Shown here: positions 19,701 to 59,876 of the stretch, piece by piece
Numbering within the stretch: position 1 is the stretch's first letter
How the letters are laid out: the number at the start of each line of letters is the position of its first letter
Source of the DNA: Amoebophrya sp. A120
Taxonomy: Eukaryota; Protista; Dinoflagellata
Direction of reading: 5' to 3'
Length of the DNA: 64,000 nt
NCBI GenBank assembly: GCA_905178155.1
Contig: CAJINV010000005.1
Location: forward strand, 3,757,697-3,821,696
The notes under the pieces: model-generated
Told to the model about the DNA's origin: nothing
The model's database searches: none
The model's input: the letters and a program-made list of their open reading frames with translations, nothing else
Made by a program: the position numbers and the translations under genes

Positions 19701-19894
19701 AGCTTCTTGCCACCAGGAGCACCAGCGCGGTCCTGCAGAAGATGGTTTTGTTTATGCGTCTGATGTTCATTTTTGTGGTCTTTTTTCCGAGTGGCAGCTC
19801 CCTCACCCGTCACCAGCTGCACTTGGATGGAGGAGGTGGATGCCACTGCGAGTGCCGACGCCAGAAGCGTTCTAGTAGCCCGGGCGTGTAACAT
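16800..19894 (-). CDS. secreted GDA1/CD39-family NTPDase (apyrase)
   Basis: apyrase conserved regions GLDIGSSGTR, YATAGAR, VLHGWEEA, SMGGASAQIAF; signal-peptide-like MLHARATRTLLASALAVA from 19894; last exon (ORF 16800-17150) and its intron (about 17156-17430) are tentative. Confidence 0.8.
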
Positions 19895-20997
19895 CTTGGA
19901 CGTCGTGGGTGTTGTCAGAAATTGTTCAATTTCATACCGAAAAGCTTTCCCGGTTCGGAAGCGGTCCGCTTTAAGCGAATCTTGGTGCGATAGCGATACC
20001 ACATAATTGCATCAACAAGATTTAACAAAAATCTTTATTTGCAATTGTCATGACACGAGTACATCACAATGGCAAGCACGATAGCATACATTCGGGATGA
20101 TCATCCAGACACCTCATTGTCAAGCCCGCCCACGATCGTTATTAGCACGAAGAAACCGCCCAATACGAGCACGATACGAAACCAAAGGATAGAAATAACA
20201 TGGCATCCTCGGTGGAAAAACGACAACGATTGTCATACTTCATTGACGACCCGCCAACCCACACCACGCACGACAAAGCCTCGATACCCTGAAGATGAGA
20301 ACCTCCGCCTCCGGCGGCGCATTTAGAACTTTAACTTGAGCCGGCAAAATCCAACTACGTCGCCCGGTACCTTTCTGTCGCGTGGCGCTTTTTATCAATC
20401 ACTTTCACTTACTACTTTTTCACTTATTGGACAAAGAAAGCAGTCTGTAGCTGTTTTTTGATATTCATAGTTGAAAACAAGACCGCGCTCACTTGTTTTA
20501 GTTGTACATTTAGAAACCTGAAACAGGCTCGCAAAATTTATTTTTCGTGATCTTGATCTTCCATCAAAAACTAGCGGAGCAGGCTCCTGCTTGTGCGTTC
20601 ACGTTACGTATACATCTACATACCATAACAACAATACTATCAAGCCCTCGTTCATTCTACTTTTCCTCGCAAATCCGAAAGATATTTTTCGTCGCTAATT
20701 GTCTACTTTGGCATCTTCATCATATATCAACATTATGGCGCGAAATTGTCAAACTTGGAAAATGGGCAAATCAGTGCAACAAGCTGGAAGTCTTGCAACA
20801 GACTCCACTTCGTTCAGAAGATAAATTTGGTACTTGCGCTTTTGTCTGAATGCGCAGACAGAAACAAAGAACTTTGTAGCAGCAGGAGGAACGAGAGTGG
20901 CGAGAACGAAAATAAATTCGTTTGGAAATTGTTTTTCGCCCTGGCGGTTCTAGCTCGGCTGCACATGTTCATCAAAAGGAGCCCAGTCTTCCAGGAT

Positions 20998-25347
<4,350 letters not shown>

Positions 25348-26949
25348 TTTGATAAAATGGTGGAGTGGAAATTTAGGTACTGACCACGACACGACGAGAA
25401 GTAGGTGATGCGCGAAAAATGGGCCTAGAGCGGACCGGAAGCCAAAGCCCAAACGGTTCGAGTAGCCGCCCGCATGTTCAAGCTGGTGCTGGTGTACATG
25501 ATGCGTTTATGTCAAGACACGCATCTTCGACGTTTTGGTCAGTTGTAGAACTTTTTTCAACTACATCTTCGAACGAAGAAAACTACACCCGTGAGACAAC
25601 GAACCGCGGCTACGTTTACACACGAAACTCTACGCCCGGTTGTTTCCAAAGGACAAGAAGACCCGTAGAGGCCGCTCCATAGCGGCACTACGTCTCAATG
25701 GCTTCCCAGATGAAACATGCTTGACCACGATGTTAGGCAAAGAACTACGCACAGTATACATAGTAACGAATTACGCTCGACGTCCCCCACGTCGTACCAT
25801 TGTGCGTCAACACCGGGCGAACAGATACCTTTTCAGACAAAAGCAACATCAAAAAGCCGTGGACAGTTGCCCGCCGTTCAATAGACCGCTGCTGCGTGTG
25901 TTTGGAGAGATTTGTCTGTGCTTTGGTTCGTCAAATGCGCCGTCTTGTTTAGTTGTTAGTTTAAATTTCGGCCAGAACCAGTAAGGTCGAGACCTTTCAG
26001 AACAAAGGCAAAGTTTTTCGCAAAAGTTAAACCCCTTACGTCATAGGCGATGTAGGACCGTCGTGGTGACACAAATACAAGTGCCCATGTCAGAATTGAC
26101 TTGCAACTTAGCTTACCTTACGCAAGCTCATGAGACGCAGCACTGAAACCGATACTGATGCTCCCTTAAATTCAAAAATAAAGTGGGAAAAATTTGGCAC
26201 TGATGTCGAAAATGTGACACATAAATAGAGGAAGTAATTAGATGAACATCCTGTGAGGTTTTGCGGGCGCAAGAGAAACTGAACAAACAGAGAAGAACTA
26301 ATACAGCCGAAAATTTTCAAAATTGTACATAATAGATTTGTCGGCATTAAAGTCCTTAGGTCGTCGCAAGAGCAGTTTAACTGTACAATATTTAGTAATA
26401 TGCGTTTATTGAGATCAAGAATGAAATGATAGAACAAAAAGCCGGTAGTGTATTCGGGATTAAGTATAGATAATTAGTCGCCCACTGGGACGACCGGGGG
26501 CGCAAGCAAAAGGAGCAACGCCGGCGTCTGCAGATGAGACGTTTAGTAGAGAAGTAAGAAAGTAGACTTACTTGTTGGATCTTCTCTAACGAGGAGTAGA
26601 CATTTCCTTTTTCTTAGTTCACAGTCATGCGAGTGCACCCCTATGACTACAAAACTGTAAGAGTCGCCGATTCTTTCAGTTTGTCAATTACTTCCAGTCA
26701 TCGGCCCAGCGCTTGACTTTTCAGAGTTTGAGTTGAAGTTCTTGTTCTATTTTTTACATAGATATAACCATAGAATAAAGATGTGATCGCCTCTTTCGGA
26801 TCCTCTACCTGCTCCTGTTTCAAAACTCCATTTGGAGGAAAGACTTTTTTGTATCTCCGAGGTAGAGGACAAAAGCGGGATAGTACTTTAGATGCAGCTG
26901 TATGTTGACCATACTACTTCATGAGGAGAAATCTTCCCGATTTTTGCAC

Positions 26950-29900
26950 TTACACCTGATTGTCGGCGGAAGCTGCGGCTTCCGTTGCAGCTGCAAGTTG
27001 CGGCGGAGCAGCAGCGGCAGCAGCAGCGGGAGCAGCAGCAGCGGCAGCAGGAGCAGCTTCGCCTTCCGCCCTCGTAACCGGTTTCTTTGCAGCAGCCGCG
27101 CCACCTCCACCAGCGAAGGGGCCCGCCCCCATCACCTTCAGCACGATGACAACGATCAGAGCGAGGCCAGCGATACCGCCGAGAATGATCGCGATGAGCA
27201 CACCGGTGTCCATGTCGTCATCGCTGGAGGAGGACGAGGTCGTGGCGGTGGTCGAACCGGCGACGGGCGCGGCGCCGGTCGCCGTGGTGGTGGGCACGGT
27301 AACTGGATTATGAGCGTGCACAGCGTCCCCCTCCCCCTCATTTGTATGGCATGAACAGCAACACAAGCAACAGCAGAAAAGGGGCTTTCGCATGACAAAT
27401 CAAATCTGCAGGCGGCTTGTAGTAGTACTATTTGAGGTCCCAAAATTTGTCATGCCTAACAGTGCTTACGGGCAAGGTGTGAAAAATGTGGTATTTTGCA
27501 TTACAAATGAGGGGGAGGCTGTACAGTTGTGCAGTCTCATACGGATCCACCGTGGCCGTGAAGGTGACGCCGGACAGGGCCGCATCGTTGGACAGCGCGG
27601 TCTGCAGCGTCGTTTGCATGGTGGCGGAGGCGAACGTTCCCGCGGTCCCCGCAGCCGTCATTTGCCCCTGCGCCGTTGCGAGGTTCGTGGCACTGTTGGC
27701 GTCCGCGTACAAGTTGAATGAGCCGCTCGCCCCGGCCGAGCTGGTCGTCAACTGCCGACGCAGCTGCTTGCGAAGTTCGCGGCGGGCAGCGAGCGCGCCC
27801 GTGAAAGCCACGTCCATTTCTGCGTAGATGCCGTTCTGGACTTGTCCGCCGGTGCAGGAGGCCAGATCACTGAACGTCTTGCCCGTACCGGAGACCGGCC
27901 CGCACATAATGCTCAACAACGTGGAAGTGATCTTGTTTTTGGCCGCGGTCTTCTGGGCGGCCGTCAAACTGGCGACATCCATCGCGAAGCTCATCGTGAC
28001 CGGGGTGGAATGGCGAGTGTAGCTGGCCAAGGACGTGGCGCGGTCGTACCCCTTCATCAGGTAGGCGGCCCACGTCGTCGTACCGCAGGCCTTGGCCGTG
28101 TGCCAGTTGTTCAGCTTGCTGGCATCAGCCGGGCACTGCGTGTCGTAGGGCGTGTTGTAGCAGTCGGGCGCGGAGCGGCAGGTGTCGTACGAGTACTTCG
28201 CCGCCGTGGAGCCCGCGAACACGGAACTGGCGATCCCGGTGGGGCAGCTGGGGTCCACGTAGCACCAGGGGACCTGACACCAGTTGTAGTCCTTGCTGCA
28301 CCAGCCCAGGTGGGCGGCCACGTCGTTCTGGGAAGCGGGGCAGTAGCTGTACCAGGGGGTGTCGGGCATCTGGTCCCAGGCGGCGCACGTGGTGCCGTAG
28401 TACGAGATGAATTTCAAGTTCTGGTACTGGCCCGGGTTGGAGGCCGGGTAGCTGCCGGTGATGGTCGAGTTGATTTTGTCCCCGCCGAACAGGCACGCAC
28501 AGGACCCGGCCTTGTCGTACTTGTTCGACTTGGTCCCGGTGGGGTCGTTGGGGCAGAACCCCGTCGCAGTGGTGGACGAGATGCCCGGCACGCTCGTGTA
28601 TCCTGAGTAAAAACGTCCCCACACCATAGTCAAGTTGGGGAATCGGCTAGACAAATCCACAAGCTTTGGCTGTTTTACATGACAAATTTGGATTCGTAGT
28701 GTAGTGCTGTTTGAGCTAGCTCAGCAGCATCACAGATCTAGCATACCATGCCGATTGGAGCATGACATATTGCAAAACACGATTGGAAAATGCTTCTCAT
28801 GGGGCTCCGCATGAGAAACATTTTCAGCATGCAGATTTGCATTACAACTATGGGGTGGGGACGTTTTTGAATAGGATATCGTGTAGCAATTGTTTACGCC
28901 GCAGGGGTTATGGCAGGAAAATAAAACTGCTTCAGTGATGTGAGGACTTTGGTGAAAATTTGCATGATAGAGACGACTTAGCTGTTACTTCACACATGAA
29001 GACAAGGACATTGATTCGCAAGGCTCTGAGACTTCAAACACAGATTCCTCGTCCGCAATTTTTATGCAAGTTTCAACAAGCGAAGCAGGTTTATTTTCGG
29101 GCGATAGGACTGGTACGAGTAAAATGCGAGGGGGGATCCCTGGAAGACGCTGCTCTGGACCCCCCACGTGCACGACTCGTCGGCGTAACACCAGGGCGAC
29201 GTGCACCAGTTGTCCGTGGTTCCGAAGTTGGCTGGCGTCTGGCAGTAACTGACCCACGGCGTGTCGGGCACGCGATCCCACGCCGCACAAGAGCTCCCGT
29301 AGATGCCGACGGCCCCATATGCACTGCGAAATTCATTTGTATTGCCGCACAGGTACAACTACAACAGGCACCACGAGCACGACCACATGATAGAAGTAAA
29401 TGCATCATAACAACATCACCTAAGGACTACCTAACAGCCGCCGCCCACTACGCGACTTGTCAGGCGAAACACGCTGCGACAAGCATCACGATCATCATCA
29501 TTGGCTGTGTCATGCGGATGAAACAGCATGTCAATGGAAATATGTAGTACAACGCCTACGCGCGGTGCGGTATAATATCAATAAATTTCCTTGAGATACA
29601 CCCAGGTTCTTGTACTGTCCCGGGTTAGTAATCGGGTACATGTCCAAGAACGCAGTGGTGTGGTTGGTGCCCTGCGCCTTGCAAGAGCAGTCGGAGAACG
29701 TGCCCTTCAGTTTGCAAACATGCGGCGTGTAGAACTCGTTCTCCTTCGAATCGTATCAAATGCAAATATGTCTGGGTCTGGAAAGTTTGTAATGCTAGCT
29801 TTCCATGCCTAGGAAATCTGTACTGCATAACCAACAAAAGTCGCGCCCTCTTTTGTACAGGCAAAAACGCAGTTTCTCATGCGGACTGCCTATGAGAAAG

Positions 29901-32900
29901 CGTTCTGGAAAGTTGTCATGCTGGGCTGCATTCGAAAGTGTTTCCATCAACCACATTTTAGCATCACAAGTTTCCAGACCCAGACATATTTGCAACGCAT
30001 AAATCGTAGGGGCACTTGGCCGCGTTCGCCGTCTTCCCCGCGGTGGTGTAGCAGTCGGGCGCGGAGCGGCAGGTGTCGTAGGAATACGCCATGGCCGTGC
30101 CGCTGCTGGCAAAGACCGTGGTGGAGATCCCGGTGGAGCACTTCACGGGGTCCACGTAGCACCAGGGAATTTGGCAGTAGTTGTTCCCCGCGGTGCAGAA
30201 ATCGGTCTTCCCGTCGGCGGGGCAGTACTGCTTCCAGGGGGTCCCGTATCGAAGAAAAAAACGGCTTAAGTCTAACTTTTTTGCGGGAACAGCATCACAG
30301 ATTTGTTTTGCATGACAGAAAACCTGTCATGCGCAGCTACTACGCGAAAACATGCATTGAAATAGCCTCTGATGCATATCCGGCATGACAAGCGTGACTG
30401 TATTGCAACGTCTGCAAGACAAAGTTACACTTACACAGTTTTTTTCGTGCGTATCCCGCTCACGCTGTCCCAAGCCGCGCAGGACGTGCCGTAGACCTTG
30501 ATGCTGGTCATGTTGGCAGGCGTATCCAAGAAAAAAAGTGCGTCAGGTTTTACAAAGACATGCTTTATTTGCAGTGATGCAGCAACACAGGCTTGGTCTA
30601 CTGCTCCGTGACAAAAAAAATCTGCAAATAAGTGCCGGAGAGCGCTTTTTCATTCAGGCAAAAGACAATGCATAAAAACTAAAGCAGGTGAGCAATTTGC
30701 GGTTTACGCATGACAGAGCGTGTCTGTCTTGCCGGCCCTAGTACTGCAGCACACCAGTCTGCTCAGCGTAATGCAATTTCGAGCCCGACTACAACAACTT
30801 TTTTCCTTCCATAGTAGGCACTACCGGTGTACAAGGCCGACGGCAGTTCTCCACCGATGTATTTGCATTCGCAATCCCCGGTGCTAGTGCCGGCGTTCTT
30901 CTTGTCCATGCGGTTGGACTGCGTGCCGGTCGGATCGTTCGGGCAGGTACCGAACCCGTCGGTGAGGGTCGAGTTCGCGTAGCAGTCCTTGAACCCGCAC
31001 GTCTGGTACGAGTACTTGGCCGCGGGGGAACCGGTTCCGGCAAACACGGAAGACGCCACCCCCCAGGGGCAGGTATCGTCGACGTAGCACCAGTATCAAA
31101 TGCAAACATGTCTGGGTCTGGAAACTTGTCATGCTAAAATGGGGATGATGGAAAAACTTCCGCATGCAGCCCAGCATGACAACTTTCCAGACTGCTTTTT
31201 CATAGGAAGTCCGCATGAGAAACTACGTTTTTGCATGACAAAAGTGGCTGCGTCGTTTGTTGCTTATGCAACACAGATTTCTCAGTAATGTAAAGCTAGC
31301 ATTACAAGTTTCAACTTTCCAGACCCAGACATTTTTGCAATGCATAACCACGGGTCAAAGCACCAGGGGTTCGCGTCGAGGGGGTAGGAGCTCTTCCCTT
31401 GACAGGAGCCCGCGAACCAGGGGGTGCCGGCGGTGTTGTCCCACGCGTTGCAGCTGGTCCCGTACACCTTGATCGACGCAAGATCCTTGTACTGCCCCGG
31501 CTGGCTGGTGGGAAAGTTCGTGTAAACGCTGCTGGCCAGCTCCTCCCCGTTGTATTTGCAAGCGCAGTTCGTGTACGTGGAGCCGCACTTCATCGGAGTG
31601 GCCCAACCAGACACGAGGGTCTTCCCGGAGTTCGGAATCTGCTTCAGATATCAAATGTAAAAATGTCTGGGTCTGGAAGAATGCATGTTTGTCATGCTTG
31701 TCTGGCATGACTCTCAAATCTGTAGTCATGCACGTGACCCCAGAGCCCCATTCTTCTGTGATGCAGAAACGCAGTTTGTCATGCAGAATAGGCAACACCT
31801 AGGACCTCAGAAACTTGTCATGCTGAGCCAGCATTTGTAGCCTCATCATGAGACGCCACCCAGCATCACAAGTTTCCAGACCCAGACATTTTTACATTTC
31901 ATATCAGCGTCGTCGCGTAGTCGAACGGGCAGTCCTTGATCTTTTTTCCGTTCTGGTTGTAGCAGTTCGGCGTGTCTTTGCACGTATCCATCATCATCAT
32001 CATTTATCCTGCACTAGGGGGGGGCGTGCGGAGGTTTGGGCTCGAGTTCGTTCAAGCTGCATCTCGAGGGTTTCTCACTGCAGCGTCGCACCTCGCTTAT
32101 CGTCGCTTACTAACATCAAGAAGTCTGAGTATCGAACTGCTCAACTCTCTTGAACATCACTGAAGTCGTTCTCTTCTTCTTCTTCGAGGATCGGATCGCA
32201 TTTCAGATCGAGCTTCTTCGTCGCGACGCACTTCTTCTCGTGCGTCTTCATGCGTCGGGACGCGCCGACCTTCTTCTGGAAATCGCGTGGCCAAGAAATC
32301 GAGTGCTCCGAGCAGTGCGGACAAGTCAGCTGTCGGACGCTGAACTTCGAAACGTCGCCACCGCTAAGAAACCGCTGCGGAGGAAGAACAAAACGCTGCG
32401 AAGGCTTGTATTTGTTCAGAATACACTGGCCCGATTTCCCGTACGCGTATTCCTCGGCCGGTGTGTAAGACCCGTCACGCTCACCGACGATGCGGACGAA
32501 GTCGTCCTCTTGATGCAGCTTGAGGTGGGCACGCAGGGCCCGCAAAGATCCGCCAAGCGCCGCCGCGCACTTGTTGCACCACAAAGCGCCAGCCCCGTCC
32601 TTGCAACCAGTATAAATCCCGCCCGATTTCCGCGCAAGGTCGTCCGTTTGCCGCTCCGAAATTTCTCCCTTCAGCACTGTCTGTTTCGCTCGTAACTCCG
32701 CCAAGCTCGGAGTGACTTTGAGGACCGCCCGCTTACTGCCGACGCGGCCCCGATCCCCATACGCCGAATCAAACTCCTCGCGCGAAATTCCGTTTTTCTT
32801 CAAAAGTCGCTCGTACGCATCTAGAACGCGTGCCTGCGATAGCGCGTCACGCCAGGACGCGAAAAACCAATGCTGCATCGTGGCATCGATATACCACGAC

Positions 32901-35134
32901 CTCGTGCGCAGGAACCAGTCCCTGCGAGTTTCCGGAACAGCAAACCCGGCGAGCTCCCGGACCGGAATCCGGGCGGCCGCGCACGCCTCGATGAAGGACT
33001 CGTAGACCGACGGTAGTCGCGATGGGCGTCGTGGCAGGAGGAACATTTCGGGGCTGCAATCCGGGGTCGTGTTGGGGTCCGCGGCGCTGATGATAAAACG
33101 GCCAAAAAACGCCTTGCGCGGCAGGTAGTCCCGGTCGCGCCGCAACAAATGCCCGCCGTGTGACAGCCTGGCATAGCCTATCTCCGCGGAGATCGGCGCA
33201 ACGCCGATGTGTTCCCGGAGGTCGCCATGCGAAACTTTCATGACCTCCATCTGGGGGAGGGACAGATTGAACAAACGCCGAAGGATTGCGTTGTCGGCGG
33301 CTGTCAGGTCACTGAGCTCCTGCGCCGAAAAAGACCGGCAATTCGCTCCATACAACATCGTACCGCGGACCAAAGCAACCACCACCGCGCGCCTGTGCCA
33401 TTTATTCAATTCCCCGAATCCGACCAACGCTGTTAGTGTTCAATTCCCCGAATTCCAAGAAAAAAACGCTGTTAGTGTCAATTTGTGATGCGCAACATGC
33501 AAAGTGATTGCGTCTGTCATGCTTGGCATGCATCGTGGGGTCCATTAAAGGGCGTTTTCACGTACTATCTGCGCATGACAGGTTTTTGCTGTCATGCCAG
33601 ACAAACTTGTAATGCTATTCCGCCAAAATAAAAGTTACACCTACAATGTTTTTTTCTTGGATAGCACGTGTTGTACGAATAGTACACGTCGGTGCTGAAA
33701 TCAGACTGCACTGCACTCGGGCAGCTGCTGTCGACGTAACACCACGGAGTCTGATTTGTTTGTATTTATTGACAGTGTGTTTTTATTATATCGCGCAGCT
33801 ACTGCTATTTGATGTTTAACAACATTTACATACTTGCATACACGATTTCGATTTGACATCCAAACCCCGACGTGACAGGCAACAACAATCCAACAACAAG
33901 AAGATTTAGTCGTTACAACAACGCAAGAACCAGATCATCACTAGATAGAACTAGAAACAGTATGAGTTATTCTGCTTATGCTATACCTGACACCAGCTGT
34001 TGTCGGAATGACAGAAATCCTTGCCAGAAGTAGGGCACGAGCCGATGTACGGGGTTCCTGAAGTTGTTTTCATATTTTTTCGCAAAAAAAAAACTTTCTT
34101 CTTTTCTGCCGTGCTGCTGCTCACAGCAACGGCTACATGATCTTGATCGCAGGCAGATCGCACTACTAACTTTTCGCAGCGTTGTCCTTCTTTTTCAGAC
34201 TTTCTCATCAGGTCTTTTACTCAGGACGATATTTCAAGTACTTACTAGAGAGACCACGCTGGTGGACCACAACAAGAAGAGCGGAATGGGTGGTCGTGGA
34301 CGAGAGTAAAAACAAGTATACCGGCCACGAAATCCCAGGCGGCACACGTGGTTCCGTACATCAGGTTCGAGGTGGTGTTCACCCGGCTCGCCATGGTTGG
34401 GAACGTCTCCAGAGTAGAGGTGGTGCTGTTGTAGTAGGCCCCGCCGAGGCAGGCACAAGAGCCCGCCTTGTCGACCTTGCCGCTGCCCGTGCCGGTGATG
34501 TCCACCGGACAGCCCGCGGACATCGGGCTGTTCGCCGCCGCCCAGCAGTTCAAGGTGCCGCACGTCTCGTACGAATAGTATTCCCCCGAGCCGGAAAACG
34601 CGGACGAAGCGATCGCGGAGTCGCAGGAGGGGTCCACAAAGCACCACGGCTGCGCCACCCAGTTCTCCGACCCCGTGAAGTTCGTCGCGTTCGCATCGTA
34701 GTACGGGGTATCGGGCAAGCTGTCCCACGCTGCGCACGCAGTACCTGATCATGATGTGAAGAGCTGCAGATCAATGTCTGATTTAGTTGTCTAGGGTAAG
34801 CAGCAGATGCTGGAGTGAGTACGTACAACCGATCGGAACTATGGTCCTCGGGGCATGCTGGTAAAATCAATGAAATTGTAAAAAAAAAATGGCCTCAAAT
34901 TAATATAGAGAATGGACGGAAGCATTCTCAAGCCGCTCCATTTCGTTGGAAACAATTACCGTAGAGCGAGATCGCCGCGGAGGAGTTGTGCTGTCCCGGG
35001 TTCGTGGTGGGGAAGTTGTTGTACGTGGTTGCCGGCAAGGTGCCTCCCGCGTACTTGCACTTGCACGCTTGCTTGATCCCGTACGCGCCGGCGGCGAAGC
35101 CCGCCCCGAGGACGAGGCGGAGCTTGTTCTTCAT
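26950..35134 (-). CDS. type I membrane surface protein with six Cys-rich kringle-like repeats, 14 exons
   Basis: signal peptide MKNKLRLVLGAGFAAGAYG; six repeats of YGTxCxAWD..GTPW...WC..PWCYVD..C...YSY.TC; Thr/Ser stalk; TM helix GVLIAIILGGIAGLALIVVIVL; Ala-rich tail; GT-AG introns 34745-34959, 34058-34321, 33751-33986 plus ten introners, all junctions in frame. Confidence 0.88.
27309..27541. mobile_element. introner (TIR TATGAG...CTCCCCCTCATTTGTA)
   Basis: imperfect TIR of about 40 bp; flanks TGGAT/CGGAT; removal gives TATVDP-VTVPTTT. Confidence 0.88.
28599..28878. mobile_element. introner, family A
   Basis: TATCCTGAGTAAAAACGTCCCCACACCATAG ... CTATGGGGTGGGGACGTTTTTGAATAGGATA; perfect TCGTG flanks; removal gives NNCYT-SVPG. 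Confidence 0.92.
28909..29106. mobile_element. introner (TIR TATGGCAGGAAAATAAAACTGCTTC)
   Basis: right end reverse-complements to TATCGCCCGAAAATAAACCTGCTTC; degenerate flanks GGGGT/GGACT; removing the element plus 5 nt gives YSYQS-CG, matching the repeat consensus. Confidence 0.82.
29318..29598. mobile_element. degenerate introner
   Basis: TAT/ATA ends; weak TIR (GAAATT.ATT..TATT..CCGCAC); flanks CCCCA/CACCC; removal gives QYKNLG-AVGIYG. Confidence 0.75.
29754..30001. mobile_element. introner, family B (TIR ...TGCAAATATGTCTGGGTCTGGAAA)
   Basis: 24-bp perfect TIR core; perfect AATCG flanks; removal gives KCPYD-SKENE. Confidence 0.93.
30247..30453. mobile_element. introner, family C (TIR TATCGAAGAAAAAAA...TAACTTT)
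   Basis: imperfect TIR of about 33 bp; perfect TCCCG flanks; removal gives WDSVSG-TPW. Confidence 0.9.
30523..30813. mobile_element. introner, family C-like, degenerate
   Basis: TATCCAAGAAAAAAAGT vs TATGGAAGGAAAAAAGT; flanks poorly matched, but removing the element plus 5 nt gives SAY-ANMTSIKVYG, aligning with YKDLASIKVYG in a sister repeat. Confidence 0.75.
31094..31346. mobile_element. introner, family B (opposite orientation to 29754-30001)
   Basis: TIR core ATGTCTGGGTCTGGAAA; flanks ACCAG/ACCAC; removal gives FDPW-CYVDD. Confidence 0.92.
31649..31903. mobile_element. introner, family B
   Basis: TATCAAATGTAAAAATGTCTGGGTCTGGAA with a near-perfect inverted copy; flanks TCAGA/TCAGC; removal gives YATTL-KQIPNSG. 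Confidence 0.92.
31985..33663. mobile_element. introner, family C, interrupted by a LINE insertion
   Basis: perfect GCACG flanks (31980-31984, 33664-33668); right TIR is the reverse complement of TATCCAAGAAAAAAAC; left TIR split into TATCCA (31985) and TCCAAGAAAAAAAC (33454); removal gives YSYNTC-KDTPNCY. Confidence 0.88.
31991..33453 (-). mobile_element. 5'-truncated non-LTR retrotransposon, RTE-like
   Basis: ORF 32141-33427 matches the post-RT region of RTE-clade ORF2 (MLYGANC...ILRRLF...RLSHGGHLLR...LPRK); CxxC...HxxxH and CxxC...HxxxC fingers; (ATG)n tail at 31989-32003; TCCA on both sides; RT core absent. Confidence 0.85.
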
Positions 35135-48015: not shown

Positions 48016-49213
48016 TCACGCCAAGGCCGGCACTGAAGCTTCTCCTGCTGCACCCCCGGCAGCAGTTACTCCCGCAGATACCGAAGTAACCGCCTGTGGG
48101 CCTCCACATTGCAGCCCCGATGTCAGCCGTCCCTCGGTCTTCTTCGCGCCCTCGTACTCCTGCCAGAGAAGGGAAAACTCGTGGTTGAACTTCTCAAACA
48201 GGATTTCGTGGTTCTTCAACACGACAATGTTCTCCATGTTCCGGTTGGCGGCGCCGCTGGTCCAGTTGAAAGAGCCCGTGATCAAGTATTTGTTTCTGTC
48301 AATCACCACGAATTTGTGGTGCATCCGGGCTTTGTTTTCGTAATGTTCCTCGTAGTCCTGGGTGTGCGACCGCCGGATCTCGAAATTGAATCTCTCGAAG
48401 GACTTCAGAAAGTTGGTCAGTCTTTCCGCGTACTCTTCGGTTGCCGTCACGACGCTTTCCTCTTGGTCCTCCTCATCTAGATCGTAGTCGTAATGGTCCG
48501 GATGCTTCGTCCACCGCTGGTAAATCTCGTTTTCCAGATTGCCTTTTCGTAGCATGTTCAGCGGGCCGGTGCGGTGCTTGCTCTGATGCCGGAGCTTCTT
48601 CTGCTCGGCGAGAAGGGAGTCTCGCAGCTCATAGACCTGATGAACAGTCCAAATCACGGCCACATCTCCGATCTTTATTTTTTCCATAAAACCCCTACTT
48701 CTCCAATGGCAACGTAGCGACTAGTCCTGCAAAAGCTATCGCCATGCGTGACGCAAAACAATAAATAGACAGACGCTAATGACAGTCATCATCAAGAACT
48801 TTGACTTCCATATTTTCTCATACCAGTGTCTTCGCCTTTCCCCGCTCCGTTTTTGATTCCGTCAGCATGTTGTTGTCGACAGTGATCCGGACCCGCAGCC
48901 AGGGTCTGTGGGACAGTAAATCCGTCAAAGTTTCCACCATTTCTTCTTCCTCCAACTGGTGCATAGCCATGTCAATGGACTCTTCCGCTTGCCAAAAGAT
49001 TCTTTTCAATTTGTTCAGCATGGCCTTTTTATCCACCTGGTCCTTCTCTGCTTTCGTCTGCTTATGTGCAACCCGGTCTTCCGGGAAGAAAAGAACGTCT
49101 TCGACGACTTGGTTTTTGTTGCTTGTCGCAGGTCGTGCAGAGGATGTTGATGAGCCGGGAGCCTGTATTGATTTGAACCCTTGGTCATGAGATGAAGCAT
49201 TTTCCTCTTCCAA
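48016..49213 (-). CDS. PLD-superfamily domain (Nuc/Zucchini/MitoPLD-like), second copy; possibly the 3' exons of the upstream gene
   Basis: DVLFFP...AEESIDMAM...VRITVD then MHHKFVVID...LITGSFNWT...NMEN; probable intron 48673-48823. Confidence 0.8.
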
Positions 49214-49345
49214 GCAAGCAAGTCTAGTAAGACTAAGAAGGAATGTGCAACAAATGCACGAATCCTGCTGAGCAAATTTGTTGCTTCACCATTCCAAATG
49301 CAAAAAAGAACAAATGCAGACAACTGAATCATAGGATCGGGCGAC

Positions 49346-52300
49346 TTAGAAAAACTCGCTCTGATCATGTACCTCCGCAGCCACGACACCGCTTTCAGTA
49401 TCAAACGCGTTTTTCACGCACGTCCTCCTATTGTACACGTTCGCTGCCGCCCAACGGTCGATCAGTGTTCGGTCTTTCTCGACAATTTCTGTCATCGATT
49501 CCCAGGTTTCGACTAAAATCGTCTCCTGTGCCTGTTTTGTCAGCCGCCCGTCTCTCGTGAAAGATCTCCGGAGCTGGGCGGGACGAGGAAGACGGATCAC
49601 CGGAATTGGGGTCGTGGAGGAAGCTGTTGTAGAGGTGGCAACTAGCGCCAGGGAAGTGGTGGAGCCTGCAGGGTCACCACCACGGTCGGTTGATGTTGTA
49701 ACAAGTTGTTCTAGAGCAGTACTAGAATGATCTTGATGCAGCAGCACGCCCTCGCTGTTCAGAGTCAAATTCCTCGGCGCGTTTTCACTGGTGCGGCACG
49801 ACTGGTGTCGTGATGTTTCATCTCTTGCATCGATCATGTTGTCTACCCGTTGCTGCTGCTCAAGACCCGTAGTTGCGTCGTGGCCTACTGCTTCATCTTC
49901 GCACAAAGCCATTCGCATCTCCTGCTCCCGGACGAAAGCCGCGTAGAAGAAGCGGTGGCCGAGGGTGTATTTTGCTAAGTGCGCTGGGTCCCGGAACCGC
50001 ATGTCGAATTCGCGGATGTAGCGGGTAATCGCGTGCTCGTCACGAAGAACAACAACGTTTTCACGGTTCCACTCGAAGCCCGGGACTGTTTATGTGGGAT
50101 TTTTGACAGTGAAGATGTAGTTCTACAGCTGATTTCTACACTTTTAGTACCATTGCACTCAAAATATACATGATATAACAAAACCAAGAACCAGAATAGA
50201 GCGGCTTTCATTGTGTTTTTTTACACAACTTCCGCGATAGCAGCGCTCGCATTCCTGGTCCTGACACTACTACAGCATAATTACAAGCTTCTGCATTATA
50301 CCTGTCAAGTTCAGGCTCCCGGTCAGCACGAACAAGCCGTCGATGATGATAAATTTGCTGTGCATCCCTCGGTATTCGCCCTGGTAAATCAGCGTGACCG
50401 GAATCCCGTTGTCCAGAAACCGTTGGTACAGCTGGCGCATGCCGGGGTTGCTCGCCTGACGAGAATCTACCAAAATCCGTACGTGAACCTTTCTGTCCAT
50501 CACCGCTTTGTTGATTTCCTGTTCCACGTCTTTGTCTGTCATGACCCACATGGCAATATCGATCCACCGCTTGGCGTCTTTCAAATACTGGAGAACTTTC
50601 TTTTTGTTTTCCACGCCAGACCTTGTTGCGCGGCTGAAGTCGTTCTCCGTGTTCACTTCGGGAATTGAAGTTGTTGTGAGAGTCAGAGATGTCATGAGCA
50701 CAGAGAGGGGCGTGCTGTCACTCCAAGCGATGCTGGTCTTTTTATTTTGTGAAAATTTGGCATGTGTGGCGGAGGAAGAGCTGCTTGAACTACTGCTGCT
50801 GCTAGTACTCGAGGACGAACTACTAGATGACGAAGTCCCGGCAGCGCTTCCGGAGGAGACAGAGATGGTTTCATCCGACGCGACTTGCTGCATTCTATCA
50901 CCGGCGCTTTCATTTTGGGCATAGTGACTTGTGTCGCCCCGACTCCCTCGACGCGAGCTTGTGTCGTTCCGAATCGCAACGTCTGTCATGCACGTACTGG
51001 TAACCGAGCTGGTTTCGGCCTGATCGCCGCCGAATTTCAACGCTTTTTTCGCCAGAAAACTTCTCGCAAACTTCGCTGCTTCCTCGGAGCACTCGTGACT
51101 CGCCTCCGGCATGTCATAGACAGACGGGAGCAGCTCTTCGAGGAGGTTTGGCGAATTCATTGCATCATCATCTTCTTCCTCGAGCTGCTCCAGCTTCACG
51201 GGAACAAGCAGGGAACTAGGATGGGGCTCTTTTGCAATATCTCCAAATGAAGGAGCGGCGCGCTTGGTGTCTCTTTTGCTATTATTTGCGGCCGAAGACG
51301 ACGAAGGTGCAGCGGCAGCTGTTGCTCGTGCTCCCCTGTCTGTTGACCCGAAAAAGAAAGATTTCTTGTTTGCAGTGGCCACTTCCTGTTGCACCGCCGC
51401 CTGGATCTGCATGTCGCTTTCGTTTTTATCATCTTCTGTGTCTTGATGTTCCCTTGGGGGCAGCTCGATTTGCGGCATGGAGTTGTAGATATGTGGCAGC
51501 AAGTGAGCCATTGACGATGGACTCGACCCTGCAGCGGAGGAAGCCGCTAGAGGAGAGCTCGGCGGAAGAGTCGTCGACGCGTTGGAGAAACTTCTGGCTC
51601 TGTTCTTGTTCTTCCCGTTCCCCGAAATAAGTGCATGGGGATTGATCAACATTGAGTTCCTCGACGTCGATCCGGTTGTGCTGCTATTATCGTCCTCCAA
51701 AAAAGACGAAGCCATCGAATTCATTCGCTGCCTACTTGGGACTGACGTCACGGGTGAAACAGGTTCCTTCTCAATGATCTCCGCATCTACGTCCCCAAAC
51801 TCCTCCACCGCTTCTACCGGATTGAAAAAAAGCACGTCCGCGATCGCGTTCTCCGCAGTTTTCACCAACACGACATCTTCGTCTCGGTCGCCCTGCAGTC
51901 GGTAATTTTCCAGCAGTTCCCTTGCCGACATCCTGCGCTCGTGCGCCTTCCGGTTGAAATAACGACTGTGGACAGTTGTGTAGTCGGGTTCCTGATCCTG
52001 CTGCGTGGATAGAGGTTGTGCAGGAGAGGACGAGCTGGATATAATTGCCGCTGTGGAAACGGAATTTCTTACGGGAACTGGAGCCAGAGGCTGACTTGAA
52101 GCTATAACGGTAGTCGTGGCGCTCGTGCCGGCTCCGCTGCTTGAAGTGGTGGTGCTCGGAGCTGCCGTGTGCGTTCCTGTGCGGCCGGTTTTGAAAGACG
52201 AGGAACTCCTCCGTCTTTTTCTGTTTTCTTCGATTGCCGTGGCCACGTTCCAGCCCGCTAACCGCAACGAGTTCACTGCTCGCCTCCTCTGTTTCGACGT

Positions 52301-52633
52301 AATCGGACTCACGAAAGTTGAGTTCCGACTTGTCAGCTCGGCAATTTTCGCTTCTTCAGCTTCGGTGAAGCCAGCGTCGGTTGGGGGGGAAGTGAATTTT
52401 TGCTTCGTGCTGGACAACGATTCTGTTCTACTTGACGCTCCGCGCATATTCACATCCTTTCGCCGCCGTCGCGAGGAAGTAAGGGTAAGATCGGTTCTAC
52501 TCTTTTTTCTTGAGACTGATTCTTCTTGTTCTTCACGTGGGTTATTCCGTAGAAGAACCTCGGATTCTAGAGACTCAAGTGCATGCGGCCCTTTTCTTTT
52601 CGCTCGTGCCGCACTTTCTGCTGTGCTAGCCAA
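49346..52633 (-). CDS. PLD-superfamily domain (Nuc/Zucchini/MitoPLD-like) protein with a long disordered N-terminus
   Basis: AKRWIDIAMW...VRILVD...MHSKFIIID...TGSLNLT joined by GT-AG intron 50086-50301 to VPGFEWNRENVVVL; both ends uncertain. Confidence 0.8.
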
Positions 52634-55028
52634 ATTATTGTCAGTCCTGCTCTCACGATGAGCAGTCGAGGCGAATCGTCGCGCAGTAGGGGCTGTCGAA
52701 CCGCCTTGCTTGTTCCCTGTTTATCGAGTTTTTGTATGAATTCTGGCACTTGCTTATCCGTTGCATTGCGCACAACTGCACGTATTGCGACTAGGAAAAC
52801 GAAAATCATGTGCTGAAGTGTCGTGCGTGAAGAAGATGAACTTAAATAGCTGGCGCAATTCTTACCTGTATTTGGTCGTTCTTGCTCTCCTCCTCGACCC
52901 CCGCCGTTGGACCCAGCATTGAAAGCTGCTCCACCAGCACTGCTTTGCGCTGCCCCTGTCCCCTCAGCCGACAAAAGCATAAATCCAGCTGCCGAAAGCA
53001 AGCCGGCAGCACCCAGTGACGGCAGAAATGAAACTCGTCTCATGGTTTGCTTTCTGCAGGAGCAGAATCTTTGAATTGCTTGTGCAAAACAAAAAAAAAT
53101 GTCCGAGTACTAGCAGCCACTTTTTGCAAGGCGGCTCTTCTTGGCTAGAACTACGACTATGGAAGAGTTGCACGTAATATGCAGATTAAAACTCGGTGCA
53201 AAAAGCACGACGTTCAGTTTAAATTCATTAAAAACGTTTGGATCATATGTATTCAATTTCGGCCGCGAAAACGACAATTTCGCAACATATCGTTGCCTCA
53301 ACGCCAAAAGATCTTCCCTACTTGCAGCTATCTCCAACGCCGCCTGCAAAGATCTGTGGCCCTCTCTCTGGGTACTACTTATTTCCGGAAGAGCGATGCT
53401 GTCTTAGAAGAAGCAACTGCAACAAGCGGTAGCTCTGTCATTAATCACAATATTTCAAAGTGCAATACGCTCGATTCAAAACTATCATACCACAGCGCCT
53501 CCTTTAAAGACAAAAAATATTAGGTGGAGACTGGTACCTGTAAACACGAGCCACATCAATCTATCGCACACAAATGGAACAAAGAAACGTAAAATTAAAA
53601 ACCTAGCAACGACGTGCGTCGAAAAAAATTGCATTGATATTGTCCACAGATATAATTCGTACAAAATTTCCACAATGTGATCGGAAACATAAACCTAGAC
53701 CTTCTATCAAAATGCAATCACGGAAGCAAAAAAGTTTCTAACTATACTTTTTAAAAAAGTGCCCATGAATGATGTGATATGCTTGTTCTCTTTGTACGCT
53801 AATCTTCTGCCAATGCACCTAACAAATTGCTTTTGCAAGAGCCGTCCAGCATCGCTTTCTCAGTTACTAGACTTCTTGCTCTTTACCTCGTCCATCACCG
53901 CAAAAAACGAGGGCCGCACTGTTTTTTACCAAAGAGTAAGGAAAATCAAAGTGACGATCTTGACAAAAAAGCCGCAGCCGGAAAATGAACGCAAAAGAAA
54001 TCCGCATCGCTAACGCTGCTGCAGCTGCTGCGTCAAAGTTTGTGCAGCTGGGTGATCCTCATGGTTTCGCTACTTATTCCAATTTTCGCGTTTGATCTCG
54101 ACTCTTCTGAACACAAATACGAGAAGTGGTTCTTCGCTGCAATCCGAAAATCGAAAGGGAACAAAAGCGCCTCCGAAGGAGGTGAATTTTTGCGCTGGAA
54201 AATCAGAACATCAGTGCGTGCGCATCAAGAACAAGATCACTCACGTTATTTCGTCTTAGGTACCTCTTTACAAGGACGACGAGAAACTTCACTATATTGC
54301 AATACAACATCGACAATGAAAAAATTTTTTACAACGCTCGTAGAAGATCTGAGGTCGACATTCCGGGGGCGCAGCACAGAAAAAAAGTCGATAGTCTTTC
54401 TTGTACTGGTATATGTTCATGAGGAAACATTCTACAGTGGGCAACCGGACAAGGAAACTCGGGGCTACACGATAAAAGCAGTGCAGTACTTCTAGTTCAG
54501 AAAGGTTATTTACAAGTATAGAACAAGCAGCACTGTATCTCTCGGTTACTACGACGACTAGATCTGGACACGTCTTTTGTGTGTACTAAGTCGTTGCGAA
54601 ATAATATTGAGCCTGTCGCAGTTGACAGACAAAAACTGTATAGTATAGCAAAAGAAAGAACTTTAGGTTTAATCATCCGTTCACAAGTGTGTCTCACTTA
54701 AAAATGACACTTTGAAACCAACACCATCAATGCTACTTCGCGTCGACCCCATTCGAATACACAGAAACCTGTGACGGCGACACAGCATTACGGTATTCCA
54801 AGTAAAAATCAGCCTCACTGCGCCGGCACAACCCTGCTGATACTTGTAGTCATGCTTGACAACATGATCAGAAATGCATCTGGCGATTGTCTCATGCAGC
54901 TGGCGCAAGACAACATGAGCTGCGGCAAAATACGGAGTGCTCTGTTTGATTTCGATACATACATGACACAAGTTTGCGCACGCACCATCACAGTGAAGGC
55001 GATTATAGTCAGAACGTCTCTCCCTTTC

Positions 55029-56689
55029 TCATATTGGCTCGTCCAGTTTCAAATCCTCAAACACCTTCGCGATTTTCGGCATCACCCACTCTACCCACTC
55101 CGGATCGAGCAAGACCAGCTGGTGCGCCTTCATGTGCGGCGGGTCGGCGGGGAATACCTCCTTGAACACCTTCGATGTCACCGCGTTTACCGTGTGGTTA
55201 CCGTACCCGACGACGTTGTAGGCCATGCCACCCTGGTTCAGTGTGTCCCAGCCCCGCATCGGCCGGTTCGCGCAGCACCCGCCCGGGCCCTGGCGCCCGA
55301 CCTCGAAGTCGGCGAACGGGGTGTTGCCGTAGGAAACGGGGGTAAACATGCAGCACATCAGATTGGGGGCGGTCTGCTGGATGAAGACCTGATAATTTTT
55401 TTTCGTATGATCATGCTGGAATGCGTTTTTCGCATGACAGACACGTTCAGTCAAGCAAGAAAGACGTCGCACAGCAATGGAGGTAAGTATTGAAAAATCT
55501 TGTTGTATCTGTACGTTCGCACTCCGCTCCCACTTGGTCGTGATCATTTTCCGCTGGTCCTCGTCCATGCCATCCTCCTGCAATTTCTCGTCCAGCCGAA
55601 TCTTTACCGCTTCCACTTTCTGGTCCCAGGTTTTCGCCTGCTTATTCATCTTCATGGTCTGCTGGACCGGTGCGCGGTCCTCAATCACTTTGGTGTTCTC
55701 AAACCCCATCCGGAAGAAGTCGTAGGCCGACTCTAACAAGGGCCCGTGCGCCAGGAACTTCGGCATCATGTACCCGGTGTATTTTGTGTTGTAGCTCTGC
55801 GGCAGTTTCTCGATCGGGACCTTGTCGTGGTTCCTCCCGTTGTTGATGCAGGTCATGCAGGGCATCACGCACAGGCAGTTCGCGGTTTTGCACAGCTCCT
55901 GCAGCCCGAAGCACTGGTAGCAGCAGCCGCACGGAATCTGCGGGAAGTAGCAGGGCTGCGCCGGGCAGTAGAGCGGGCAGTGGGGCATGGGCTTCTGAAT
56001 CCAGTCGAGGCCGAGGACCAGGGAGGGGCACTGGTTTTTCATACGCAATTGGTGGTAGGTCTCGTTCATGTAGACGCCTGCAAAGGGTGGAAGATGTTCG
56101 AAACTTAAAGAAAGTTCAACTTGTAGCTTTTCATGCCTGTAAAGCATTTGTACATTACATGCTTATCTTGTTAATCGAGGTCGACGTCGATAGTGAAAAG
56201 CTGCCACGGCGGAGATAAAGAGAGCCAACGAGAACCACAAAGAAACCAAATTACAAGATCTTACTCCCTTATACCTCCCGCCGAATACGTGCTCAAGACC
56301 CATTTCCGACCCTTCTTCGCACCGGCCAACTCTAACTTCTCAATGATCGCATCCGAGTACAGCGCGCCGATCTCCGCCAATGACATCGTCCTGGGATCGT
56401 AGTCGATGTTCGTCATGAACGGGTGCTCTATGGCCCACAAATCCCGCTCGATCCCCAGCGCCTTCCAGATCTTGTGGAAGGGTCGGGTGGCTCCCCCGGC
56501 CGGGTGGACGAAGACCATGGGCGCCATGGTGTCGGATTTCGTTCCCTTCTGCACCTGGAACATCACCCCCTCCGAGTCGAGGGAGGATCTTTTGATCGGG
56601 ATGGGCTTTCCGGTCGCGTCCGTCGGCGGCATGGCGTAGGGAAATTTGGAGACAACTCCGCCGACCTTTTTTTGGGGAGAGGATGCCAT
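55029..56689 (-). CDS. type I (PKS/NRPS-like) thioesterase with a Cys-rich insertion
   Basis: FVHPAGG, STYSAGG-VYMNETYHQL...VLGLD across GT-AG intron 56078-56274; probable in-frame intron 55389-55514; candidate His in GYGNHT. Confidence 0.78.
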
Positions 56690-57187
56690 TTTCGAGGGTT
56701 TAACTTGTTTGCATAAAGAATGTAGTTCTACTTATTCGTAGCAGTTGTTTATACAACGGTGAAAAACTTCTACTGATTGTGGTTCGCAACTGCCTACCAC
56801 AGTAGTTCTTTGCCTGTTCTGTGAAATGAATTCATCGAGATTTTTGCGGACGTCATCAGCTGTTCCGGCAGAAAAAGTATTCGCATAATTGGATGTTGCG
56901 GGAGTAAAACTAAAACTCGCTAGTGCAGCAAGCATGGCGACGACTTACCCTACCCGAAACCGAATGGTAGAAAGAAACTGGCACCGCTACAATGATGTTA
57001 CATGATTAAGACTTCCCAGCATGACTCCTACGCCCAAACGCATCCCTTCCGATGAGAGCTGAGGTGGTGCTGCTCCCAGAAGCATGCATTGAAATTGATT
57101 CACTGTCTACAAGTATCGATCCGACAAAGAATGAAAAAACGAGAAGTGGTCACAAATAGTGCACGATCTAAATAAACGCAAGACGGC

Positions 57188-59876
57188 CTATACCACTTCC
57201 TCCTCTCCGCTCTGGCTTGCTCTCGAGTCAGCGATCGCTTGCAGGAGCAGATCGAGCCAGATTTCTATCCGCGGATTCCGCTGGTACTTGTCCACTTTCG
57301 AAACCAGGTCGATTTTCACGTCAAACCGCTTTTTCACGGTTCTCGCGACTTCTCCCAAACACCGGACCGCGAGAAAACTGTCCATCCCGAGAGTCGTTAA
57401 GGACCTCGTGTGCGCATTCGGACCGGTGAGGATTTCAGTGACTGAAATGTTGTCGACGGAAAGTTCCCCGAGAATACTAATCAACGCGTCGGTGACCCCG
57501 GCGGCCAAGGCATCTCGATCTATCGGCTGTAATTCTGCTTCTTCTTGTGCCCCGCTGCCACCAGCTGCTGAACTCGTCGCCAACTCCACACTCTTCCGGA
57601 TCATGGCCGGCACATCCACCGCTGCGAAAGTACTCGGTCTGCTGGAACCGCTTGATGTCCTTGCACTTGCAGCTGACGTCTTCTTCCCCGGGCTCGTGGG
57701 CTCGTTGACAGAAGCGCCGTAGGTATTTACGTTCTCTGGATCGAACACCGCGACTTGCAAAATCCTGTCTCGGTCGAAAACTCCGGACCAGGTGCTCTCC
57801 ACGGCTTCGAGCGAGTCAACATCCGTTGGTGTGATTAAGCCGAGCGAGCGGAGAAATTTCTGCGCCGGGAGATTTTTTCCGGAATTTTGGAACTGGATTT
57901 TCACTTCCGTGATATTTTTATTTGCAGCTGCGCCATCTACCAAATGCTTCAACATTTTGTGTTCCACACCGCGACCCAGAACTCGGCAGCTCATCACGAA
58001 ATTGTCCAAAACGAGGCGGTTTTTCTCCACGGACCAGAAGAGGACGCCGACCAACCCGTAGTCCCCGAACCGGTCCGAGACAAAGACCACGCTGCAGTTC
58101 AAGTCGCTCGGCATAGTCAGGTGCCGTTTCGTTGTGAAGTTGAATTGGTTGGATTTCTGCGTCAACTGCAGCACCCTGGGTTCGTTTTCTGGCTTTACCG
58201 CCTCGACTCTGATTTTCAAGTCCAGACTGTTGATAAAATCCGTGAAACTGGTCGCAGATTTCTGTTGCTCCTGCCGCGCAAACTCCACCCTGTATTGGTC
58301 CGACTTGCTCGCAGTACCAGCGGTAGTAGTACCTCCTGCTCCGTCTCCTCTCGTGTTTCCTCGAAAGTCGTCCAGTGGCCACAAGTGGTCTGCGAACTGC
58401 TGCGCTTGTTTGTCCCTCTGCTTTAGTAATTCTGGGACCATGATCTTACTGCTGTTGTTCGTCGTCCTCGCAGCTCCAGGCAAAAGAACCTCTCCGGCCT
58501 GAAGACTAATGTTGTTCTGTTGCTCAACATCCGCCTCGACGTTTCGAAAGGCTGGCACCTGAATCGCGGTAACGTTCGCAGTCGCTGGGTTGGCGCCGAC
58601 TTCCGCGAGTTCCATCGGGTTATCGTCTAAAAACACCCAACTCAAGTCGACGGTCAGATTCAGTTGCTCCGCTGCGGCTAGAATGTTCTGCGACTTCGGC
58701 TCCCAGTTGATCTTGTGAAGCACAAAATCGTCGAAGGAGAGAGGCCAGGGCTCTGCTGCTGGTGGGTTTTTAGTGCTGGTGTCCGTCATCTTCCCGGAGC
58801 CTTTACTATGAAAATCGAAGGCTTTCTTTACGTCGATTTCACTGTTCTTCGAGGCGGTTATCAACAGAATGTCCCCGTCGTCTTTGCGCTTCTTCAGAAG
58901 CTTCATCAGGGCGAGGTTCGCCTTCACTTCAAACGGCGCATTCTCCGAGTCGCCGACCTGCCCGGCCCACAGCGTGTTGTCGCAGTCACAAACAATCACT
59001 TTGGTTGGTGGCCGGCAGATGTCCGTAAGAGCGCGAGCGGTGTAGTAGGCGAGTAGATCGTAGCTGTGGGGATGTTGTTTTTGCTTGTCTGAATGTGCTT
59101 TGCATTTGGCTGTGTTATTTTGCAAAGAGAGCAAGAATGTGTCTGTGGTCGCCGTCGACCACCCCCATACACAACAGAACAAGAAAGACAGGCCGCAGTG
59201 GCATCGGAATAGAGCCGATGAAGTTCAAGTTCTCGCTTATCAAAAGCATCGCACTATACCCTTTCTTCGTGTAGGGAATCGCCCCTAGTTTATCCGACAC
59301 ACTGTCAAAATATTCTTCCGGGTCGCTAGTAAAGACACTGGTCTCGTCCCTCACCAAGTCATCCACTAAGACCACCTTACTGCAATCCTTTAGCCCGGTT
59401 TTCAACGCTGTCACCCACTGCCCTATCACCCCCCGCGACGGCACCGAAGATGAGGCAGCACTTTTGGAGTTCTTTCTTCTGTCTTCTGGACACAACACCA
59501 GCAACAATACCCCCTTTGCTTTTTCCGCTTTCTGGTAGGCCCGACAGGCCCTGGCCAATTCCTCGCCGGCGTTGGTGCTTGCGACATCGTTCCCAAAGTT
59601 GTCCTTGGTAACAGCGGTGTCACGGAGGTCGGAAAGCCGGATCAGGGCGATGTTGATCGCTAAAGCTTTGCGATTTGGGTCGGAGGTCGGACTTGGCAAC
59701 GTTGTGTTAGGATCGACGTAGAAGAGACTGCTGGCATTCAAGATGGATTGAAACACTTGGTTAAAGCCCGCACACGTGCACTCCACGTCCACTTCCGCCC
59801 AGCGGTCGGCGACCAAAGACGGCACCTCGTCGATGGTAAATGTGGAGGCAAAATTCAAAACGGTATGGGTCGACAT
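57188..59876 (-). CDS. FkbH-like protein (HAD-IIIC phosphatase plus acyltransferase-like domain) with a C-terminal acyl carrier domain
   Basis: KVIVCDCDNTLWAG, ASKN, INWEPKSQN, FLDDNPME, QLTQKSNQFNFT, VSDRFGDYGLVG, MSCRVLGRGVE; ACP motif LGMDSF; GT-AG intron 59064-59259 joins the N-terminal exon. Confidence 0.9.

Follow-up and report, generated by a model that had tools for sequence, protein, structure and literature searches.

In this study, we asked whether a parasitic dinoflagellate encodes a complete FkbH, carrier and thioesterase protein, and what such a protein might make. The window analyzed here is a 64,000-nucleotide (nt) stretch of Amoebophrya sp. A120 (assembly GCA_905178155.1, contig CAJINV010000005.1, positions 3,757,697 to 3,821,696 of the forward strand). 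Its minus strand holds two open reading frame (ORF) regions, one for an FkbH protein with a carrier motif at its end and the other, about 500 nt downstream, for a thioesterase-like protein. FkbH enzymes are described as loading and dephosphorylating 1,3-bisphosphoglycerate, which places a glyceryl unit on a carrier (PMC8949500, PMC7489565, PMC3679948). We found that the FkbH and acyl carrier protein (ACP) part and the thioesterase (TE) part belong to a single spliced, conserved gene on the minus strand.

A single spliced gene

Assembled contigs of two samples from one study (X1 and X3), which we took as RNA on the strength of their spliced joints, showed five stretches spliced out at this locus. 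Four were of the GT..AG type (196, 528, 197 and 126 nt), and the last was non-canonical (245 or 244 nt). When the exons were joined, the open frame was identical to residues 1-1265 of P0152, the annotated A120 protein GSA120T00023772001 (1283 aa). The 245-nt form of the last intron supplied the final 17 residues of P0152.

The FkbH-ACP and TE parts are joined by the removal of intron 2 (56666..57193, 528 nt, GT..AG, phase 0 on both sides). The joint (57194 to 56665, in frame, frame checked; placed at 56663/57192, cut +2) was present in both X1 and X3, with 27 letters on its short side. The first-pass annotation had read the GTATAG donor at 57193 as a hint of an FkbH-ACP-TE fusion and had found no in-phase acceptor. 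The donor is real and is used in both samples, and an in-phase acceptor does exist, namely the AG at 56667-56666 after a run of A. P0152 has the same junction as the contigs. The annotation and the contigs possibly derive from the same data and were not counted as independent. Uninterrupted FkbH-ACP-TE fusions in strain A25, in the cluster holding the strain AT5 gene and in four other relatives therefore provide the independent support for a single gene. The raw-read runs X8 and X9 gave 3 and 0 reads at the locus, too few to bear on splicing. A stop codon just past the donor, an ATG ahead of the TE part and the short side of the junction are what two separate neighboring genes might leave. Two genes are nevertheless extremely improbable, because the in-frame joint occurs in two samples, the annotated junction is the same and the relatives carry fused proteins.

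Exon 1 (59260..59876; contig pieces 59260-59999/60703, equal to P0152) contains the start ATG and the FkbH N-terminal, BF1531-like domain (aa 1-205). It is followed by intron 1 (59064..59259, 196 nt, GT..AG, joint 59063/59260 in X1 and X3); the FkbH gene is thus intron-containing, as first annotated. Exon 2 (57194..59063; TIGR01686 and TIGR01681 above cut-off) encodes the HAD phosphatase, the GNAT-like acyl-transfer part, a linker and the ACP. It includes D232 in DCDNT at 58987, the SKN and DDNP motifs, C565 in SCR at 57988 and S768 in GMDS at 57379. Exon 3 (56275..56665; contigs, P0152 and profile alignment) carries the N-terminal part of the TE with HPAGG and the nucleophile S957 in TYSAGG at 56284. 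After intron 3 (56078..56274, 197 nt, GT..AG, joint 56076/56274), exon 4 (55515..56077; homologue and profile alignments) encodes the catalytic D984 (56006), a cysteine-rich lid insert (56003-55848) and a helical lid. Intron 4 (55389..55514, 126 nt, GT..AG, joint 55386/55513) contains no in-frame stop. Exon 5 (55034..55388; profile and homologue alignment) encodes the C-terminal part of the TE with the catalytic H1236 in AHQL (55124).

The gene extends beyond 55029 through intron 5 (54789..55033, 245 nt, TA..TA as the tool places it), which had two joints in both samples. These two splice forms differ by one base (245 and 244 nt) and were of similar depth in X1 and X3. The 244-nt form brings a stop directly after the TE part, the shorter end point at which the A25 and AT5-cluster proteins also terminate, whereas the 245-nt form adds 17 residues. 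Unspliced RNA would end at the stop at 55031-55029. We looked for a terminal inverted repeat in intron 5 and found none, nor any notable repeat, and therefore did not call it an introner. Exon 6 (54150..54788; contigs 54150/54192-54789) comprises the 17-residue tail of one splice form (stop 54735-54733) and a probable 3' untranslated region. At the other end of the gene, one RNA contig (59877-60703, minus strand) covers 827 nt upstream of the start codon, has no intron and crosses a GA microsatellite and 12 ATGs. Either the leader is long, or transcription of the adjoining gene reads through into this one.

Catalytic parts of the protein

The protein consists of an N-terminal domain (aa 1-224), the HAD phosphatase, the GNAT-like part, a low-complexity linker, the ACP and the TE (about 860-1265). 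The FkbH family profile TIGR01686 scored 194.3 and 187.2 bits (cut-off 146.65), and the HAD-IIIC profile scored 37.2 bits (cut-off 35.75). In FkbH, the SCR cysteine is the acyl acceptor. This cysteine and the HAD motifs (DxD, S/T, K and DD) were intact in all eight aligned homologues, in which D232, D234, K278, D352, D353, C565, S768 and S957 were invariant. Because every FkbH motif is intact, the A120 protein likely loads a glyceryl unit from 1,3-bisphosphoglycerate.

The fused ACP with LGMDSF, proposed at first sight, was found at S768 (57379-57377). Its GMDS aligned with bacterial GGTS, and the region was helical in the structural model. At the PF00550 gathering score of 20.8, the A120, A25 and P0154 proteins did not match; the homologues P0005 (23.3) and P0006 (27.2) passed. 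Confidence in the full-length model of the A25 orthologue was low (predicted local distance difference test score, pLDDT, 58.9; predicted template modeling score, pTM, 0.41). It matched BF1531 (3SLR, E 7.8e-13), MDP-1, NatD and the EntF T-TE didomain. Neither Pfam nor NCBIfam detected a ketosynthase (KS), adenylation (A) or condensation (C) domain in P0152. Pfam likewise found none in 21 window ORFs, a scan outside which short exons lie, in agreement with the first-pass annotation. Its proposal of a self-contained load-and-release module is supported in that a load, carry and release domain set lies in one protein.

The type I TE that had been noted downstream on the same strand is present, with two further GT..AG introns. 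S957, D984 (27 residues on) and H1236 were in register with the bacterial Cys-Asp-His triad (hhalign 96.9%). D984 was conserved in 7/7 and H1236 in 6/6 homologues that reach those positions, and the nucleophile was Ser in all eight eukaryote-type rows. The model of the homologue P0275 (pTM 0.73) matched the fold of polyketide synthase (PKS) and non-ribosomal peptide synthetase (NRPS) thioesterases with Z 16.5-20.6, and the best match was GbnD6 (9f7b, Z 20.6, rmsd 3.4, 265 aligned). In the Atlas, the A120 TE part was nearest to PF00975 clusters (0.94, 194 features shared). At the PF00975 gathering score of 26.4, A120 gave no match, P0004 passed (29.2) and P0002 scored 17.7.

Directly after the catalytic Asp, seven of eight sequences contained a lid insert with 10-14 Cys in 70 residues, compared with 0.3-2% Cys elsewhere. 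Clusters of this type are known as sites of S-acylation. An Atlas search with the cysteine-rich lid returned nothing above 0.77. Further, no transmembrane or signal segment was detected in the protein (maximum 19-residue hydropathy 1.4-1.6).

Relatives and ancestry

The A25 orthologue was 65% identical to the A120 protein, and the cluster holding the AT5 gene g5903.t1 was 63% identical. The average orthologue identity between Amoebophrya strains is given as 48-51% (PMC7789003). Judged by identity, the gene is conserved above the strain average in three Amoebophrya strains. Six further clusters had the same TE type (P0002, P0003/P0122, P0004, P0005, P0006, and P0274 with P0399/P0275); those that were aligned to A25 were 39-49% identical to it. 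A eukaryotic source is shown for P0006 only (EukProt), and several of the six end where an intron would be.

An exhaustive search of 1.84 billion representatives returned, in its best 150, five eukaryote-type rows (P0154, P0005, P0003, P0274 and P0275) and one KS-type sister row; the remaining two high-scoring rows, each with two FkbH domains, were NRPSs of bacterial type. These 150 reach down to 411 bits and full-length members score >1300, so that distant TE-only fragments could fall below. None of the best 120 of 1782 or the best 120 of 912 matches was a named protein of a core dinoflagellate, an apicomplexan or Perkinsus. Metagenome and viral scans with alignment yielded 80 and 7 loci (28-38% identity), none with the eukaryote-type TE, and nothing in the seven viral loci pointed to a virus carrying this form. 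The TE-region homologue search was weak, yielding 3 proteins from 1831 candidates and missing known relatives. In these sequence searches, the FkbH-ACP-TE architecture, which according to the first-pass annotation might have proved common across eukaryotes, is rare in them. The viral loci were seven contigs (L122-L128) with FkbH-like proteins of 28-31% identity, five of which were used as outgroup.

In a quick tree of the FkbH part (67 chosen rows, LG+G4), the nine eukaryote-type rows grouped with support 94. They joined four FkbH-ACP(-KS) metagenome proteins with support 100, and this long branch lay among FkbH domains of bacterial PKSs and NRPSs. FastTree with 282 rows recovered the same two groups, with long-branch warnings. 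An approximately unbiased (AU) test rejected a clade made up solely of the eukaryote-type rows and the main bacterial FkbH-ACP-TE group (p 0.003); a clade that also took in the KS-type sisters was not rejected (p 0.43). The test neither excluded nor demonstrated a link to the bacterial stand-alone form. Because the family is spread in bacteria, bacterial ancestry of the eukaryotic FkbH part is likely. The possible bacterial origin proposed earlier is thus supported as an affinity, by a 100% profile match to bacterial FkbH-ACP-TE and by the position of the eukaryotic branch among bacterial rows. The sister-branch proteins (P0008, P0009, P0010 and P0126) carry the same FkbH type in PKS/NRPS-like proteins (FkbH-ACP-KS), and their read-through ends make them look eukaryotic.

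The FkbH-ACP-TE domain order is common in bacteria, and many of the best 120 near-length matches were ~1000-aa proteins with PF00550 and PF00975. Their nucleophile was Cys in 39 and Ser in 2 of 41 aligned rows. The 128 loci fetched contained 131 FkbH ORFs. Twenty of these stood alone and included a TE, and five of the twenty were located at a contig end. In the remaining 15, the next downstream gene was a glycosyltransferase of family GT2 (8) or GT4 (1), a convergent family-3 acyltransferase (2), a second copy (1), a citrate synthase (1) or an unassigned gene (2). A glycosyl- or acyltransferase therefore lay directly downstream in 11/15 loci. A phosphopantetheinyl transferase (PPTase) was found near the bacterial fusion in L002, L024 and L060. 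Two acidobacterial loci (L023:9914-15253 and L027:9944-15368) contained FkbH-ACP followed by GT4 and GT4-thioesterase fusions, and a Gemmatimonadales genome (L018:9600-15775) contained two tandem FkbH-ACP-TE genes in a polysaccharide cluster. The abundance of this architecture in bacteria, the cysteine-rich lid insert and a hint of a TE-only transcript, described below, are points beyond the first-pass annotation.

Proposed function and known systems

We propose, giving it about an even chance, that the FkbH-ACP-TE protein loads D-glycerate from 1,3-bisphosphoglycerate and passes it via the TE serine to a sugar or lipid as acceptor, perhaps at a membrane. By analogy with the family, a trans-acting PPTase would prime S768. 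The FkbH part would then take the acyl phosphate onto C565, remove the 3-phosphate via D232 and transfer the glyceryl unit to the phosphopantetheine thiol. Comparison suggests that S957 would form a glyceryl-enzyme resolved by a hydroxyl or amine acceptor, not by water. More speculatively, the cysteine-rich insert might be S-acylated and tie the enzyme to the membrane of its acceptor. We prefer transfer to an acceptor for three reasons: releasing free glycerate calls for no carrier arm, a phosphatase alone being sufficient; the bacterial form has glycosyl- and acyltransferases as neighbors; and the lid insert suggests a membrane site.

Several observations weigh against this proposal, which is built on the comparison of sequences and models. 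No candidate acceptor or partner gene was seen in the window, where the next gene downstream is PLD-like and none of the 21 ORFs had a glycosyl- or acyltransferase Pfam match. Four of the 15 bacterial loci had no adjoining transferase, and the loci, which came largely from one cyanobacterial query, are related and not independent. Further, the bacterial neighborhood may not carry over to the eukaryotic enzyme, because the nucleophile differs (Ser, against Cys in 39/41 bacterial rows) and the FkbH part does not group exclusively with the bacterial fusions, as the AU test showed. Pfam detected neither the ACP nor the TE in the three Amoebophrya proteins, although some homologues passed. P0006 lacked both the lid insert and a motif conserved downstream of it, perhaps through an error in the gene model. 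Finally, the insert had pLDDT <50 in both models and could bind metal instead of being S-acylated.

Glyceryl-ACP might instead be modified in trans first, by a glycosyltransferase or with an acyl chain from a type I fatty acid synthase (FAS) or PKS, so that the TE would release glycosyl-glycerate or acyl-glycerate. The two acidobacterial loci pair FkbH-ACP with GT4 and a GT4-thioesterase, GT2 genes adjoin the bacterial fusion in 8/15 loci, and FkbH-ACP precedes KS in three sister-branch proteins (P0008, P0010 and P0126). AT5 is reported to have a type I FAS and a PKS (PMC6482013), and a lid of this size hints at a substrate larger than glycerate. However, no such partner lies near the gene, and we regard this route as unlikely, though the foremost competitor. 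Plain hydrolysis of the loaded unit, giving free D-glycerate or a glycerate dimer or oligomer, is less probable again. It would fit a Ser-Asp-His triad like that of hydrolytic type I thioesterases, and would require no partner, none being present in the window. On the other hand, it would waste the ATP of phosphoglycerate kinase where a phosphatase alone would do. It would also leave unexplained the conserved cysteine-rich insert and the transferase-rich bacterial neighborhoods.

The TE might also act mainly on its own. The GC content of third codon positions (GC3) was 0.65 before intron 2 and 0.86 after it (Fisher p 2e-15; other window ORFs 0.52-0.87), and the TE was the best conserved part (74%). 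Contig depth over the TE exceeded that over the rest in X1 (101 vs 63) and X3 (107 vs 24). Contigs also covered 56637-56819 and 56637-57007, running from exon 3 into intron 2, where an in-frame ATG (56689) stands just before the acceptor. The depth of the 56637-56819 contig was 36 in X3 and as low as 3.5 in X1. These features hint at a shorter transcript starting in intron 2 and yielding a free TE, which we treat as a lead only; contigs cannot show transcript starts or levels, and 3' (poly(A)) bias explains part of the rise in depth. That this product is the main form, a general acyl-thioesterase or editing enzyme beside a minor long form, is improbable. Every full-length relative retains the fusion, and the homologue searches, fragments apart, found no free-standing TE of the eukaryote type.

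Taking transfer to an acceptor as the working proposal, a wider scenario can be sketched, which we consider speculative and unlikely as a whole. Amoebophrya and some marine protists would keep an old, bacterial-derived carrier route that adds glycerate to a membrane glycan or lipid through a lipid-anchored Ser thioesterase, and a stage-specific TE-only isoform started within intron 2 of the gene would add, edit or remove this decoration during infection. If true, there would be a glyceryl-carrier pathway in eukaryotes that lies outside polyketide synthesis, and its bearer would be a parasite said to have almost no modular synthases. Amoebophrya controls dinoflagellate blooms. FkbH chemistry has been described from bacteria, and three Amoebophrya strains keep such an enzyme despite their near-lack of modular synthases, while standard Pfam scans overlook its carrier and TE parts. 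The proposal is directly testable, since it concerns one soluble protein whose donor substrate is known. Further, the product could also account for the widespread, little-studied bacterial FkbH-ACP-TE genes in surface-sugar clusters.

Other genes of the window, all on the minus strand, were as follows. Directly downstream lies a long low-complexity gene (48016-53109) with at least two PLD-like (HKD) domains (PF13091); it was dropped as a candidate partner, adjacency being its sole support. A multi-exon kinase with several cyclic-nucleotide-binding domains (22028-25506) resembles cGMP-dependent protein kinase. An 876-aa ORF with a signal-like start (17381-20011) had no Pfam match at 1e-3; its motifs recall apyrase conserved regions, and we presume it to be possibly a divergent secreted NTPDase. 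A cysteine-rich, probably secreted protein (27428-28720, GC3 0.87) also had no Pfam match and contains a stretch that we take to be kringle-like. The ORF at 32141-33439, again with no Pfam match, resembles by eye the C-terminal remnant of a non-LTR retroelement.

Full-text searches, outside which subscription papers and supplements lie, found no literature that deals with FkbH modules in eukaryotes or with FkbH-ACP-TE proteins of the stand-alone kind; genome-paper supplements may list the gene. The main texts of PMC7789003, PMC8283056 and PMC6482013 contained no mention of FkbH that we found. Thus, the parts are known and their combination is known from uncharacterized bacterial genes; the eukaryotic Ser form with a cysteine-rich lid was not found in print.

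Modular synthases are described as almost entirely absent from Amoebophrya (PMC8283056). The dinoflagellate multidomain synthases (BurA-like and ZmaK-like) are likewise carrier-based and thought to be bacterial-derived, but they rely on A or KS domains, and Syndiniales are described as largely lacking these synthases (PMC8283056). The FkbH/OzmB-type loaders of methoxymalonyl-ACP and tetronate pathways and the FkbH-T modules of the cystomanamide and vioprolide NRPSs share the HAD-IIIC and GNAT-like core, its motifs and a carrier directly behind it (PMC8949500, PMC7489565). In contrast to these loaders, the A120 gene is nuclear and intron-split, and its protein ends in its own TE; neither the gene nor the scanned window ORFs supplied a KS, C, FabH or dehydrogenase partner. 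Type I PKS/NRPS thioesterases (gladiolin GbnD6, AB3403, the oocydin branching TE, Vlm2 and EntF) have the fold of the P0275 model, a likeness that shows no function, and the A25 model matches a T-TE didomain. Unlike them, the eukaryotic enzyme has a longer lid with a cysteine-rich stretch, and A120 falls below the PF00975 cut-off. The closest counterpart in domain order is the bacterial stand-alone FkbH-ACP-TE protein (~1000 aa; Leptolyngbya, Pantanalinema, Planctomycetota, Methylophilaceae and others). It has the same four-part order including the N-terminal domain, a profile match from the N-terminus to the TE (100% probability) and a triad in register. The A120 protein differs from it in having Ser instead of Cys, a cysteine-rich lid insert, a TE only 16% identical, no adjoining transferase gene and an FkbH part on a separate long branch.

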